Counted from the stretch's first letter, positions 30,724 to 39,961 are shown. The stretch: DNA of 64,000 bases from an uncultured Clostridia bacterium (GCA_964402415.1 CAYOCI010000001.1:14323-78322), one strand, 5' to 3'. Notes: generated by a model not told the origin, from the letters alone. A program made the numbers and translations.

Positions 30724-31341
30724 TTAGCCTCTGACGACATCCTTGATCTTCATCAACCGGGTGGTGGCGGAGCGCTCTTGTTCGGAGAGCTTCATGGTGA
30801 TGCTCTTGACGGTCTTCTCCAGCTCGGGGATCATGACGTATTCCAGCGCGTTGACACGGCGGCGGGTACGCTCGATCTCGTCGGCCAGGAGTTCCACGGC
30901 GCGCTCGACACCGGCCAGCTTGATCATCATCGGCAGCACCTCGGCGTAGATGCCGAGGGCGGTATCAAGCTCGCTGGATGTGTTGGCAAAACCGTAGGAG
31001 AAGACCTCGCCCTCTTGGTGGAGCTGGAAGGTGGGAGCGGTTATGCTCATCATCCTCTTCTCACCAGTGGTCAGGCTCACCTGCTGCTTCGGGAACATGA
31101 TCGCTTCTTCCAGCATCTCCGGCGACATGACCGCCCGGGCGACCAGGAAGCTGCGATAAGCGGTGGTTAGCTTGGCGTCGACCTCTTGGCGCAGGTCCTT
31201 GATATCGCGGACCAGGGCTAGGAAGGTCTTCATCAGTTCGTCACGCTTATCTTTGAGGAGCTTGTGCCCACGCTTCGCCACGTGCACGCGTTTCTTCAGC
31301 CTGAGCAGCTCCATCCGGGTGGGGTTAACCCTGATATTCAT
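30724..31341 (-). CDS. atpD: A/V-type ATPase subunit D
   Basis: N-terminus MNIRVNPTRMELLRLKKRVHVAKRGHKLLKDKRDEL is typical of V-type subunit D. Confidence 0.85.
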   Translation of the reverse strand: MNIRVNPTRMELLRLKKRVHVAKRGHKLLKDKRDELMKTFLALVRDIKDLRQEVDAKLTTAYRSFLVARAVMSPEMLEEAIMFPKQQVSLTTGEKRMMSITAPTFQLHQEGEVFSYGFANTSSELDTALGIYAEVLPMMIKLAGVERAVELLADEIERTRRRVNALEYVMIPELEKTVKSITMKLSEQERSATTRLMKIKDVVRG

Positions 31342-31356
31342 TGACCCTCACCTCGC

Positions 31357-32739
31357 TTAAGCGTCGGCGGCTTTGGGCATGTATTTCGCAATATGCTCTT
31401 CGCGCACGCGTTTTAGTTCCTCGGCAGGCAAGAGCGATAGCAGCTCCCAAGCCAGATCGAGGGTAAAGATGATACCGCGGTCTTCGTTCTCACCCTGACG
31501 GACATAACGGGTCTCGAAGTCGTCAGCAAAGCGGGAGAACTTCTTGTCAGCATCGGAGAGGGCGGCCTCACCGAGGATGACGGCCAGTTCCTTGGCCTCT
31601 TTGCCGCGGCTGTAGGCGGCGAAGAGCTGGTTGAGCACGCCGCTGTGGTCCTCGCGGGTCTTGCCATTGCCGATACCCTTATCCTTCAGGCGGGAGAGCG
31701 ACGGGAGCACATCGACCGGCGGGTAGATACCCTTGCGGTGCAGCTCGCGACCCAAGATGATCTGACCCTCGGTGATGTAACCGGTGAGGTCAGGGATCGG
31801 ATGGGTCTTGTCGTCTTCCGGCATGGTGAGGATGGGGATCTGGGTGATGGAGCCGGGTTTGCCCTTGATACGACCGGCGCGCTCATACAGCGTCGACAGG
31901 TCGGTATAGAGGTAACCGGGATAGCCACGGCGCCCAGGAACCTCTTTACGGGCGGCAGAGATCTCACGCAGCGCTTCGGCGTAGTTGGTCATGTCAGTCA
32001 TGATGACCAAGACGTGCATGCCCTTCTCGTAGGCCAAGTACTCGGCACAGGTGAGGGCGATACGCGGAGTAGCGATACGCTCGATGGTCGGGTCGTTGGC
32101 CAGGTTCATGAACAGCACCGCACGGTCAATGGCGCCGGTCTTGCGGAAGTCGCTGATGAAGTAGTCGGCTTCCTCAAAGGTGATGCCCATGGCGGCGAAG
32201 ACGACGGCGAACGGCTCGCTGGTCCCGAGCACCTTGGCTTGACGGGCGATCTGCGCAGCCAACTGGGCATGCGGTAGACCGGAGGCCGAGAAGATCGGCA
32301 ACTTCTGACCGCGGACCAAGGTGTTCATGCAGTCGATGGTGGAGATACCGGTCTCGATGAACTCCGACGGATAGGCACGGGAGTACGGGTTCATCGGGTT
32401 GCCGTTGATATCGAGCCGCTTCTCGGGGATGATATTCGGACCTTTGTCGATCGGGCGGCCAAAGCCGTCGAAGACGCGGCCGAGCATATCCTCGGAGACG
32501 GGCAGCTCGATCACTTTGCCCAAGAAGCGGGCTTTACTGGCTTGGATATTGATCCCGGAGGTACCTTCGAAGATCTGGACCAGGGCCTTGCCCTCCATGG
32601 CTTCCAGCACACGCCCGCGGCGCAGCTCGCCATTGGGGAGTTCGACTTCGACCAGTTCCTCATACTTGATCCCTTCGACCTTCTCCACTAGCATCAGCGG
32701 ACCGGCCACTTCGGTGATGGTACGGTATTCTTTCTGCAT
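31357..32739 (-). CDS. atpB: A/V-type ATPase subunit B
   Basis: V-type B-subunit core (non-catalytic nucleotide-binding fold), 460 aa. Confidence 0.85.
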
Positions 32740-32754
32740 CGTTCTCCCTCCCCC

Positions 32755-37535: not shown

Positions 37536-37662
37536 TTTCAGTAACCTCCAATTTGTTTAGTGATAATTGCAGTGGGGTGCTAAGTCAAAGGACATGAGTG
37601 AGTGACCTAGCATACCCTTCTCCCCACCTGTCGCCATGCTGCTGGTGTCTAGAGTCTTGGGT

Positions 37663-39651
37663 CTACTTGATCACGGTGTACTTGGATTCGCGCCTGAACG
37701 GGCGGAAGGGGGCTCCGCCTCCTTCGAAGAACTTGGTGAAGAACTCAACGAACTGCAGACGCGCTGAGTGGATGAAGCAACCTAGCACGCTGAGCATCAG
37801 GTTGAAGATATGGCCACCGACTATGAGTAGCAGCATCAAGGGCCAGCCCACGATCGGGATGTCCTTGAGCATCATAGCGATGGTATTGACCACCAAGGCG
37901 ATGACGCCACCGGATAGGGCCAGTGCCAGAAGACGGGTGTAGGAGAGGGTGTCACTAAAGGGACCAACTGTGCCATAGAGAGCGTAGAGACCGCCGCCCA
38001 GCTTGCCGATGATGCTTTTCGCGCCACGCCCTTGGGTGAGCACGATCCCAGCTGCTCCGGCCATGGCCACATATTTGGCGATACTGGCCAGTCCGCCGAA
38101 TGCGGGCACGGTCGCAGATACTGCCAAGAAGACCAGCGAGGCGATCCAGAAGAGCCACGGGCCTTGATCGAGGAGCGCGCCGATCCGGTCACCCGACTTC
38201 CAGGCCCCCACCATCTTGACCGCATAGCCGGTCCAGACATGGATGACGCCCAGGAAGACGGTCAGGATCATCATGCTAAGCGGATCTGCCATCGGGTCGA
38301 GCAAGACGACGCTGGCTTTTAACCGCTTCAGCCCTTCAAATGGCGTGAGCTCGATGAGGTTGCCGAAGAAGCCGTTGAGGGCAAGCCCGACGACGATGGT
38401 CAGTCCACCGACCATCATGAACAGGCGAAAGAACTTCTTCCCATACTTGTCCAGGTCGTACTTGCGCATGAACCAGATTCCGCCGAGAAGTAGGAGTAGA
38501 CCATAGCCAGCATCGCCGAGGGCGATCGCGAAGAAGAGCGCGAAGAACGGCGCTAGGACTGGGGTCGGGTCCATCTCCGAGTACATCGGCCAGCCGTAGA
38601 CATTGGTGACGAACTCGAAGGGGGTAGCGACCGCATTGTTCTCCAGCAGCACCGGTGGGATGTCGTCCTCCTCGGGGTCGGAGACCATCAGGGCAACGTC
38701 GGGGAACTTCTCTTTCATCCTGGCTTCAAACGTCGCCAGATCGCGGGCCAGCACCCAACCTTCCAGCAGGAAGACCTGTTCGGTGTTAGCGGTCTTATGC
38801 ATCGCGCCCTGACGCTGCGTCAGATGGTCGTAGTGGTCATAGAGCGCCTGCAGCTTGACCTGATCAGCGAGGAGCGCCTGCGAGGCCTTGGTGATCCCGT
38901 CGCGCTCACGAGCCGCATCGCGTAAGTTCTGTTCGATCTCTAACAACGCCTGCTGTGGTGAGAGGTGGGCGTAGCTGAGACTCACACGGGTAAAAATGGA
39001 CTCCCTCAGCGCCTGTGCGGCCGCCTGGTCGCCCCGGGGGAAGACCACCACCACGCCGATCTCGCGGGCGCTGGCGAAGACCTGCTCCACGTGGGTCTTA
39101 CCATGGCTCTGTTCTTCAAGGGTCGCTAGGAAGCGCTCATAGTCGGGGATGGGAACAGTCCCGCTCGTCGCCTCGACAGTGCCAAGCTGTTCAAGCTCTC
39201 TTGGCGCAACGTCGAGGTTGGCCCAGGGCTTAAGCCCCTGCAGTTCGCCCTGTAGGCGACTGGTCGTGGTGGCCAGTTCGCCCAAACGTTTGTCATACTG
39301 GCGGCAGCGTTCGGCGATGGCGAGACCATCAAAGTCGGTGACGATCTCATTCATCTGCTGCTGCGACAGACCCGCCTTCAGCCCCATGAAGCTCTCGATC
39401 ATCCCCTGCTGCTTGGTGTCATAGCGGCGCAGATAATCGAGGGCGAACTTCACCTGGGCTTGGGCGGCCTCAGCCTCGGCGACTGGCAGCTCTTGGTCGA
39501 CCCGCAGATAGACTGCTAGGTCACTCTTGGCCAATCTCTCATGCATGTCAGCCAGGTGCACCATCTCCCAGTCCTGCAAGGCTGAGAGAAGCTGGGTCTT
39601 CCAGGATTGGTGGGCGACGAGGCGGACCTTCTTTAGCTTAACGACTGCCAT
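37663..39651 (-). CDS. atpI: A/V-type ATPase subunit I (a-subunit)
   Basis: 662 aa with a soluble N-terminal half and a multi-TM C-terminal half, as in V-type subunit I/a. Confidence 0.8.
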   Translation of the reverse strand: MAVVKLKKVRLVAHQSWKTQLLSALQDWEMVHLADMHERLAKSDLAVYLRVDQELPVAEAEAAQAQVKFALDYLRRYDTKQQGMIESFMGLKAGLSQQQMNEIVTDFDGLAIAERCRQYDKRLGELATTTSRLQGELQGLKPWANLDVAPRELEQLGTVEATSGTVPIPDYERFLATLEEQSHGKTHVEQVFASAREIGVVVVFPRGDQAAAQALRESIFTRVSLSYAHLSPQQALLEIEQNLRDAARERDGITKASQALLADQVKLQALYDHYDHLTQRQGAMHKTANTEQVFLLEGWVLARDLATFEARMKEKFPDVALMVSDPEEDDIPPVLLENNAVATPFEFVTNVYGWPMYSEMDPTPVLAPFFALFFAIALGDAGYGLLLLLGGIWFMRKYDLDKYGKKFFRLFMMVGGLTIVVGLALNGFFGNLIELTPFEGLKRLKASVVLLDPMADPLSMMILTVFLGVIHVWTGYAVKMVGAWKSGDRIGALLDQGPWLFWIASLVFLAVSATVPAFGGLASIAKYVAMAGAAGIVLTQGRGAKSIIGKLGGGLYALYGTVGPFSDTLSYTRLLALALSGGVIALVVNTIAMMLKDIPIVGWPLMLLLIVGGHIFNLMLSVLGCFIHSARLQFVEFFTKFFEGGGAPFRPFRRESKYTVIK

Positions 39652-39961
39652 CGCGCGTCACAATCCTTTCCTTGACTAGGTTGACCGCTCGCGGCAACTG
39701 CGTCCGCGCGCTGTCACTGATCTTACGTCGTTCGGCCTCATTGCTCTGCCTTAGCTGAACCACCTTCGCGGTGACCTGGGTCATGCGTTCAGCTTTTAGC
39801 CTCTCAGCCTCACTGCGGGCGGCCTTGATGCCTTCATCAAGCATTTGTGTTGCCTGCTGCCGTACGTCGTTGGTCAGCTTGTCCGCCTCGGTCTTCGCTT
39901 TGTCGACCTCGGCCTTAGCCGCCTGCTCGGCATCTTTGACCTTCCTTAGGATCTCTTCCAT
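39638..39961 (-). CDS. A/V-type ATPase small stator subunit (G/H, NtpF-like)
   Basis: 107-aa charged coiled-coil protein that is the first gene of the operon, matching the ntpF position. Confidence 0.55.
   Translation of the reverse strand: MEEILRKVKDAEQAAKAEVDKAKTEADKLTNDVRQQATQMLDEGIKAARSEAERLKAERMTQVTAKVVQLRQSNEAERRKISDSARTQLPRAVNLVKERIVTRDGSR

Follow-up and report, generated by a model that had tools for sequence, protein, structure and literature searches.

A stretch of 64,000 nucleotides (nt) from an uncultured Clostridia bacterium (GCA_964402415.1, CAYOCI010000001.1:14323-78322; hereafter the window) carries on its minus strand, at positions 30724-39961, nine intact and consecutive open reading frames (ORFs) which were identified by Pfam and NCBIfam searches as a full A/V-type ATPase operon (V operon). 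It occupies the slot in which a large part of the Firmicutes, yet not all of them, carry the operon of the F1Fo ATP synthase (F operon). Taken as a whole, the locus is best explained by an ancient in-situ displacement of the F operon by a V operon encoding a Na+-type enzyme, a reading to which we assign a probability of roughly 0.62. This reading is preferred because a tandem of V and F operons, a chimera of atpZ-atpI-atpB with a V operon, and a V operon accompanied by an orphan atpZ exist in other genomes.

The position of the operon was assessed with murA as synteny anchor, for which 80 loci of GTDB species representatives among the matches listed were compared over 10 kb on each side; 69 of them had at least 2.5 kb of sequence upstream of murA and were informative. 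Among the matches listed, an F-type operon directly precedes murA in 35 of the 69 loci and ends 0.6-2.5 kb away from it (6-7 kb in two cases), with wecB located just before the F-type operon in 17 of these 35. A true V-type operon lies upstream of murA in five of the 69 loci among the matches listed, its A and B subunits being 67-71% and 76-80% identical to those of the window. The boundaries found in the window, namely (upp-)wecB upstream and spoIIT(ywmB)-murA-spoIID downstream, fit this Firmicute atp locus, while F-type content is absent. Searches by tblastn (E<=10) with ten proteins of the F-type operon at locus L092 (AtpZ, AtpI, a, c, b, delta, alpha, gamma, beta, and epsilon) detected no F-type gene or remnant in the 64 kb, the sole matches of the alpha and beta queries being the expected paralogy to V-type B and A. 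Likewise, no F-type pseudogene remnant or atpZ-like small ORF was found in the leader and spacers of the operon, and no ORF resembling atpZ or atpI in the leader. The original prediction for this DNA had described a complete operon of nine genes in the ntpFIKECGABD order of Enterococcus, located in the atp slot of a window devoid of F-type subunits. The order on the one strand (H/G, I, K, E, C, F, A, B, D) and the family assignments agree with the first part of this description, the murA-anchored loci with the second, and the tblastn searches with the third. A comparison of locus synteny in relatives, which it had also proposed, revealed that the flanks of the atp locus recur around F- and V-type operons.

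The neighbourhoods of related V operons fall into five states (the same state and its INTERMEDIATES elsewhere). In state (a), a clean V operon is found in the slot (L083-85, L086, L091, L014, L051, L058, and L068). A 'Selenomonadales bacterium' metagenome-assembled genome (MAG; L083-85) shows the order tsaC-ywlE-rpiB-glyA-upp-deaminase-wecB-V-SpoIIT-murA-x-spoIID-M23, L086 that of wecB-V, and Tepidanaerobacter sp. GT38 (L091) that of V-SpoIIT-murA-spoIID-M23-spoIIID-mbl-flgFG. Besides the Selenomonadales and Tepidanaerobacter genomes, five GTDB species show a V operon in the slot, four of them uncultured Bacillota/Clostridia MAGs and one a Tissierellaceae MAG; the layout recurs in other public genomes and is not peculiar to the window organism. 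State (b), a V operon with a lone vestige, is represented by a Bacillota MAG (L026) with the order V-AtpZ (PF09527, 58.8 bits)-SpoIIT-murA. State (c) is a tandem found in 'Thermoanaerobacterium sp. DL9XJH110' (L090/L092), AtpZ-V-LysM-AtpI-a-c-b-delta-alpha-gamma-beta-epsilon-SpoIIT-murA, in which a complete F operon harbours the V operon between its atpZ and its atpI. State (d) is a chimera in Koleobacter methoxysyntrophicus (L095, CP059066), where AtpZ, AtpI, and an F-type a subunit are directly followed by H-I-K-E-C-F-A-B-D. In state (e), the V operon is located off the slot, in L081, L087, L088, and L089 with MatE...priA or tilS as its context and an IS110 transposase nearby in L081 and L087, and also in L093 of Thermoanaerobacter sp. 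X514. With regard to details of these loci, the orphan atpZ-atpI-atpB of L095 (4025-5309; F-type a subunit of 219 amino acids (aa)) is fused head-to-tail with the complete V operon. The F-type epsilon of the L092 tandem comprises 89 aa (21355-21624) with the N-terminal domain only, next to an alpha of 538 aa (17223-18839); this F enzyme, with a V operon upstream of its genes, may be undergoing divergence or decay.

Since atpZ is the first gene of normal clostridial F operons (e.g., L003, L006, L011, L061, L069, and L074), states (b) to (d) can be read as footprints of the entry of a V operon at the head of an F operon, followed by the loss of F-type genes. The slot (wecB on one side, spoIIT-murA-spoIID on the other) would then be the ancestral F1Fo locus of endospore-forming Firmicutes, and we infer that the insertion of a V operon within or beside the F-operon head, around atpZ/atpI, was followed by the coexistence of both operons in tandem, and that deletion of the F-type genes finally amounted to an in-situ non-orthologous displacement. 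Such an event would be old and either shared or repeated among several Firmicute lineages. The replacement in situ that had been proposed for the window is hence consistent with intermediates found elsewhere, whereas it appears neither unique nor recent, and the lack of F-type genes refers to 64 kb. A literature search found no prior description of a V-for-F displacement at the same Firmicute locus, which is no proof of absence. In-situ non-orthologous gene displacement within operons that retain their flanks was reportedly described by Omelchenko et al. in 2003; here, an entire nine-gene operon would displace an operon of nine to ten genes, with tandem and chimeric intermediates still extant. 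Exchanging the ATP synthase for a non-homologous machine alters the ion/ATP ratio and the coupling ion, which set the thermodynamic limit of anaerobe life, and this locus forms, along with the tandem, chimeric, and vestigial arrangements of other public genomes, a concrete series for how such a swap can take place without loss of function, by insertion, coexistence, and deletion.

Several observations bear on the age of the operon. Its GC content (0.585-0.615) and its GC content at third codon positions (GC3; 0.69-0.83) equal those of the flanks, unlike those of the deviant low-GC polysaccharide island, and heptamer cassettes of the host type occur inside its spacers, from which it follows that the operon is a long-term resident, old and ameliorated. 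The phylogeny of subunits A and B suggested by the original prediction was built as a neighbour-joining tree of the concatenated proteins, in which slot-located operons are found in every clade and off-slot operons are nested among them. This nesting in an unrooted and unsupported tree suggests that the slot is the older location. Relatives of subunit A show 84%, then about 80% identity, followed by a broad plateau near 70%, and the nearest ones are all bacterial; the term 'archaeal-type' used previously applies to the class of the enzyme, but not to its closest kin. The next-best murA in a search of 5.8 billion proteins was 67% identical, with none above, which implies that the window organism has no close sequenced relative. 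It belongs to a deep, poorly sampled spore-forming lineage and is a candidate for Na+ cycling.

The coupling ion can be predicted from subunit K, which contains a duplicated hairpin with four transmembrane (TM) helices, one ion site, and two PF00137 stretches in 169 aa. Aligned with NtpK of Enterococcus hirae (PDB 2BL2; E 5.6e-36), all five Na+ ligands established for the latter (PMC2359735) are identical: L61, T64, Q65, Q110, and E139 of E. hirae correspond to L66, T69, Q70, Q121, and E150 in the window, with Y73 also listed. All ligands are placed accordingly (the backbone Leu, Thr, and Gln in helix 2, the second Gln in helix 3, and Glu in helix 4), and E150 is the only acidic residue of K within a helix, giving one carboxylate per four helices. 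The ion-binding residues, which had been singled out for inspection beforehand, thus retain the full Na+ motif of the 2BL2 alignment. Because K combines four helices with one complete Na+ site, the enzyme is predicted on sequence grounds to link ATP with the translocation of Na+, at a low ratio of ions to ATP.

Rotors with a 'V-type c subunit' were long considered unfit for ATP synthesis. The Na+ A1AO synthase of Eubacterium callanderi (limosum) KIST612, which resembles the window enzyme in class and rotor design (4-TM c/K with one Na+ site), provides experimental proof that an enzyme with a 'V-type c subunit' synthesises ATP at a low driving force of about 87 mV (PMC9171764). Tepidanaerobacter acetatoxydans, which reportedly lacks F1Fo, relies on one Na+ and one H+ A1AO enzyme, the former with a Na+-type c subunit with one site and the latter encoded by a second, H+-type cluster (PMC13564433). 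Clostridium tetani as well as Thermoanaerobacter sp. X513/X514 were reported as Clostridia with V-type enzymes only, lacking F0F1 (PMC4154653). By analogy with these organisms, and in view of the slot position, the enzyme would most likely serve as the main, and possibly the only, ATP synthase/ATPase of its host, either driven by or generating a sodium-motive force, and the organism is a candidate for a low-gear A1AO-type synthase. As V/A-only Clostridia and this type of enzyme have already been described, the practical value of the finding is modest.

Among the known systems, the V-type Na+-ATPase of E. hirae (PDB 2BL2, 3VR2, and 8WCI) shares with the window its gene order, the duplicated 4-TM K subunit, and the Na+ ligands. 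The E. hirae operon, which encodes an inducible Na+ pump, carries ntpH and ntpJ after ntpD, is not known to lie in the atp slot, and coexists with F1Fo. The window operon, in contrast, has no extra genes past D, occupies the atp slot, and has no F-type gene nearby. In Tepidanaerobacter sp. GT38, the same nine genes are followed by the same series from SpoIIT to flgFG as in the window, but the proteins are only 69% (A) and 34% (C) identical and fall into a different clade of the operon tree. The V operon of Thermoanaerobacter sp. X514 is located between genes for a uracil permease and a chromate transporter, unlike that of the window with its spoIIT-murA neighbours.

Several points weigh against an in-situ displacement. 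The absence of F-type genes has the scope of the 64-kb window, with the rest of the genome outside, and many Clostridia carry both types of enzyme. Neither ATPase was present within 10 kb of murA in 29 of the 69 informative loci among the matches listed, which indicates that F operons can sit elsewhere. The closest characterised homologue in terms of gene order and K sequence, that of E. hirae, is a Na+ pump and no synthase. Furthermore, the order of events is drawn from separate present-day genomes and no dated phylogeny, and the tree of A and B, with no outgroup and no bootstrap, is indicative only. The position of atpZ also differs, as it precedes the V operon in L092 and follows it in L026, and insertion may have taken place more than once. 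Finally, a consensus scan of the coding strand of the leader found no sigma-70 promoter.

Some of these points are shared by the explanation that the V operon encodes an accessory Na+ (or H+) pump and stands in the old position of an F1Fo operon that is now encoded elsewhere after a move or a re-acquisition, which we consider somewhat unlikely. It would agree with the gene order and K subunit of the E. hirae type, with the joint presence of F- and V-type enzymes that is common among Firmicutes (table in PMC2359735; PMC9171764), with the loci lacking an ATPase operon near murA, and with L092, which retains both enzymes together. Against an accessory role speaks that not even a fragment of an F-type gene is found in the 64 kb, that composition and conservation of the operon resemble those of housekeeping genes, and that F1Fo was reported to be lacking in members of the genera Tepidanaerobacter and Thermoanaerobacter (PMC13564433; PMC4154653), represented here by L091 in the slot and L093 off the slot, both with no F operon beside the V operon.

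An alternative history, in which one clade of V operons was delivered horizontally and repeatedly to distant Firmicutes, each time between wecB and spoIIT-murA, appears rather improbable. Delivery might have occurred by recombination replacing a resident V or F operon, or only this regulatory context might be tolerated. The V proteins of the window are far closer to those of L086, L081, and L083 than is the case for the flanking genes: between the window and L086, identities are 84% (A), 94% (B), 76% (C), and 62% (I) compared to 59% for wecB, and between the window and L083, they are 80% (A), 88% (B), and 58% (C) compared to 62% (murA), 59% (wecB), 74% (upp), and 68% (glyA), the latter two at plateau level. 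In the pair L091/L092, which served for calibration, murA is 85% identical alongside 87% for A and 56% for C. Such a mismatch suggests a movement of V operons from one distant Firmicute to another, even if it is calibrated on a single pair and murA and wecB might be saturated at about 60 percent beyond the family level. The nearest operons (L081, L087, and L088) are located off the slot, two of them beside an IS110 transposase, and V operons were encountered on plasmids or chromids as well (17 records). Carriage of this particular clade on plasmids was nevertheless rejected, as the best of the 17 plasmid/chromid V-type A genes was 66% identical. A mosaic or recombination junction at the 3' end of wecB was likewise rejected, since identity is not elevated there, and SpoIIT of the window and L083 gave no tblastn match to each other. 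No integrase, attachment (att) site, or boundary repeat shared with relatives was found.

Related to this is the doubtful but more far-reaching possibility that wecB|spoIIT-murA is a recurrent landing or retention site, at which one V clade (A 77-84% and B 86-94% identical) is exchanged horizontally between hosts whose flanking housekeeping genes are about 60% identical, with the atpZ/atpI head as point of insertion or fusion. If true, this would imply locus-specific capture or a strong selection for the atp regulatory context, and it would offer a stepwise and still observable path for swapping a core energy converter. An assembly or binning artefact, i.e., a contig chimera of a V-operon fragment and an atp-locus fragment, is conceivable insofar as the source assembly is possibly a MAG, but extremely improbable given the uniform composition over both junctions, the same host-specific heptamer cassettes in the operon and both flanks, and identical wecB|V and V|SpoIIT-murA junctions found independently in JGI, ENA, and NCBI assemblies.

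Regarding the preferred displacement and the enzyme itself, the operon is intact and co-transcribed and encodes a bacterial A/V-type (Enterococcus ntp-type, 'A1AO-like') rotary ATPase. All ORFs of substantial size in the window lie on the minus strand, and the features of the locus are compiled in Table 1. For I, K, E, C, F, A, B, and D, Pfam/NCBIfam scores are above or near the curated thresholds. The H/G-like ORF, which overlaps I, gave no match in the Pfam search and scored below cutoff with NF006256 ('V-type ATP synthase subunit H'; E 4.7e-8) and TIGR02926 (AhaH; E 3.3e-4); its assignment is backed by ORFs of 107-109 aa at the equal position in L081, L083, L086, L091, and L092. By analogy with known enzymes, an A3B3 head would be connected by a D/F central stalk via C to the K ring, with E-H peripheral stalks and I as stator.

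Table 1. Coordinates of the V operon, its boundaries and associated elements in the window.
Feature	Position	Strand	Remarks
H/G-like subunit, peripheral-stalk partner of E (E. hirae NtpF equivalent)	39638-39961	-	First operon gene, 107 aa
Subunit I, stator a-subunit	37663-39651	-	662 aa; PF01496; NF004428 342 bits
Subunit K, rotor proteolipid	37026-37535	-	169 aa; 2x PF00137; NF005124 196 bits (cutoff 127)
Subunit E, peripheral stalk	36112-36711	-	199 aa; PF01991 E 1.6e-23
Subunit C, d-type rotor socket	34826-35878	-	ORF 350 aa; PF01992 245.7 bits; NF002266 354 bits (cutoff 270)
Subunit F, central stalk	34507-34842	-	111 aa; PF01990; NF002384 119 bits (cutoff 114)
Subunit A, catalytic	32755-34506	-	583 aa; PF02874 + PF16886 + PF00006 + PF22919; NF003220 925 bits
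Subunit B, non-catalytic	31357-32739	-	460 aa; NF003235 800 bits
Subunit D, central stalk	30724-31341	-	Last operon gene, 205 aa; PF01813 200.5 bits
wecB, UDP-GlcNAc 2-epimerase	40498-41871	-	Upstream boundary of the slot; TIGR00236 500.6 bits
spoIIT/ywmB homologue (DUF1779)	29496-30425	-	Downstream boundary of the slot; PF08680 57.9 bits
murA	28003-29253	-	Synteny anchor; TIGR01072 580 bits
Leader, wecB to H	39962-40497	-	536 nt, AT-richer
Heptamer-array stem-loop cassette inside K-E spacer	36815-37010	-	(GCCCCTC)x4 ... (CGAGGGG)x4
Intrinsic terminator	30685-30717	-	7 nt past D stop codon; 15-bp stem, 9 GC pairs, T tract
Four-helix-bundle cassette (gene)	27375-28005 (27493-27876)		TIGR02436
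Four-helix-bundle cassette (gene)	25686-26322 (25805-26170)		TIGR02436
Four-helix-bundle cassette (gene)	43237-44169 (43710-44144)		TIGR02436

Subunit I contains the conserved stator arginines R573 (SYTRLLAL) and R631 (HSARLQFVEFF). It aligns from end to end to E. hirae NtpI (PDB 8wci_P; E 6.6e-59), with SYTR573LLAL paired to SYTRLMAL. Subunit A carries the Walker A motif GPFGSGKT at residues 236-243, the catalytic E265 in GERGNEM, and the non-homologous insert specific for A/V-type enzymes (PF16886). Its best solved relatives are 1vdz ('A-type ATPase subunit A'), a Pyrococcus enzyme, and E. hirae NtpA (3vr2), with E values of about 1e-242 to 1e-245, that for E. hirae being about 1e-242. In the translation of subunit B, read by eye, no GxxxxGK[ST] P-loop was seen, and 'SASGLPH' is found at residue 151. 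The real start of subunit E is probably the ATG at 36708, and that of subunit C probably M15 (about 35836), giving 336 aa, in line with homologues of 333-336 aa. The N-terminal extensions in the ORF calls of C, wecB, spoIIT, and spoIIID are probably not translated; in the case of spoIIT, the N-terminal part crosses heptamer arrays.

In transcription order, the upstream flank comprises prfA, prmC, a nagA-like deacetylase gene, tsaC, rpiB, a ywlG-family gene, glyA, upp, a four-helix-bundle gene, the genes for a dCMP deaminase and a wecA/tagO-like transferase, and wecB. The operon is followed by DUF1779/SpoIIT (=YwmB), murA, a four-helix-bundle gene, spoIID, a further four-helix-bundle gene, M23 (SpoIIQ-like), spoIIID, MreB/Mbl, and two flagellar rod genes (flgF/flgG). 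Pfam/NCBIfam assignments confirmed the flanking genes named in the original prediction, whose list has to be extended by the three interspersed four-helix-bundle genes, the dCMP deaminase gene, and the wecA-like gene. In L083, L090, L091, L026, L051, L068, and L014, a member of the DUF1779/SpoIIT family likewise separates murA from atpC or V-type D.

Within the operon, tight junctions (H-I -14 nt, C-F -17, F-A 0, A-B 15, and B-D 15) are found next to unusually long spacers (I-K 127 nt, K-E 314 nt, and E-C 233 nt). The K-E spacer, merely 14-85 nt long in L083, L081, L086, and L091, contains in the window a cassette with Tandem Repeats Finder arrays at 36819-36845 and 36974-37002 and a predicted RNA fold of -107.9 kcal/mol that is closed by a stem of 17 bp (z -3.6). 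It represents a host-specific repeat and a possible RNA-processing site. A comparable stem-loop cassette in the E-C spacer was considered and rejected, as the arrays there are not complementary (z +0.3). Two copies of a 31-nt palindrome, GTTAAC..GGGGTCTGACCCC..GTTAAC (GTTAAC-NNN-GGGGTC-N-GACCCC-NNN-GTTAAC), bracket the V operon (30651-30681 and 40468-40498), and a third copy lies in the M23/spoIIID spacer (about 24600-24630). Each copy is located just past the end of a gene (D, wecB, and M23) and has another hairpin, with the pattern GTAGGGGCGC...GCGCCC, 30-40 nt behind it. An insertion scar or att site was rejected for the bracketing pair because of the third copy elsewhere and the lack of such copies at the V-operon borders of relatives; the palindrome is probably a genome-wide intergenic element, either a terminator hairpin or similar to repetitive extragenic palindromic (REP) elements. 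A scan of the whole window against Rfam yielded zero families at gathering score.

Arrays of about four copies of a heptamer (sometimes 8 nt) were detected 33 times in the 64 kb, 24 of them clearly intergenic (e.g., 57435-57591, 58276-58453, 44839-45070, 52914-53091, and 36819-37002). The unit varies by site (AGTCATA, GCCCCTC, AGTCCAC, CATCAGG, and others), and the arrays often form inverted pairs 100-400 nt apart, resulting in a stem of 17-30 bp (z -6.8 for 57425-57600). They are absent from eight of nine loci of relatives that were checked and sparse in the ninth (L083). Neither an Rfam match nor, in a literature search, a description of the arrays was found; they are reminiscent of cyanobacterial short tandemly repeated repetitive (STRR) heptamers and of intervening sequences (IVS) processed by RNase III. 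One inverted pair, (GCCCCTC)x4 ... (CGAGGGG)x4 at 52345-52558, lies within the prmC ORF (51777-53111, 444 aa), past the PrmC_N domain (aa 76-145) and ahead of the methyltransferase domain, which begins at about aa 259, and leaves the frame open. The pair would be either an in-frame insertion that is tolerated or an element that is taken out of the RNA.

The three four-helix-bundle genes (GC3 0.58-0.61), located among housekeeping genes, belong to TIGR02436, the family of 23S-rRNA intervening-sequence proteins or Avd-like proteins. Each is flanked by a heptamer/octamer array on both sides; the arrays of 27375-28005 were checked for complementarity, and those of 25686-26322 are approximately complementary. 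In the 27375-28005 cassette, a terminal stem of roughly 30 bp surrounds the whole ORF and its ribosome-binding site (z -5.6). This architecture is that of a 23S rRNA IVS, but inside mRNA operons, and may reflect a mobile or processed element. These IVS-like cassettes with heptamer arrays, some of them with four-helix-bundle genes, may be the most unusual feature of the window, unrelated to the ATPase.

Apart from these elements, a low-GC island at about 4000-16000 (GC 0.46-0.52 compared to 0.58-0.61; GC3 0.51-0.57) encodes a UDP-glucose dehydrogenase, a pyruvyl transferase, an FrhB-like Fe-S protein, Wzy-type polymerases, glycosyltransferases, and an ATP-grasp ligase. Beside it, Wzz/tyrosine-kinase genes (18112-19519) and a Polysacc_synt_2 gene (15857-17920) are located, and the island looks like a horizontally acquired surface-polysaccharide cluster. 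At 59147-63937, a protein of 1362 aa and a neighbouring one of 155 aa contain Cu_amine_oxidN1, Big_1, and glucodextranase-B domains, which are typical of cell-envelope proteins in Clostridia-like bacteria.

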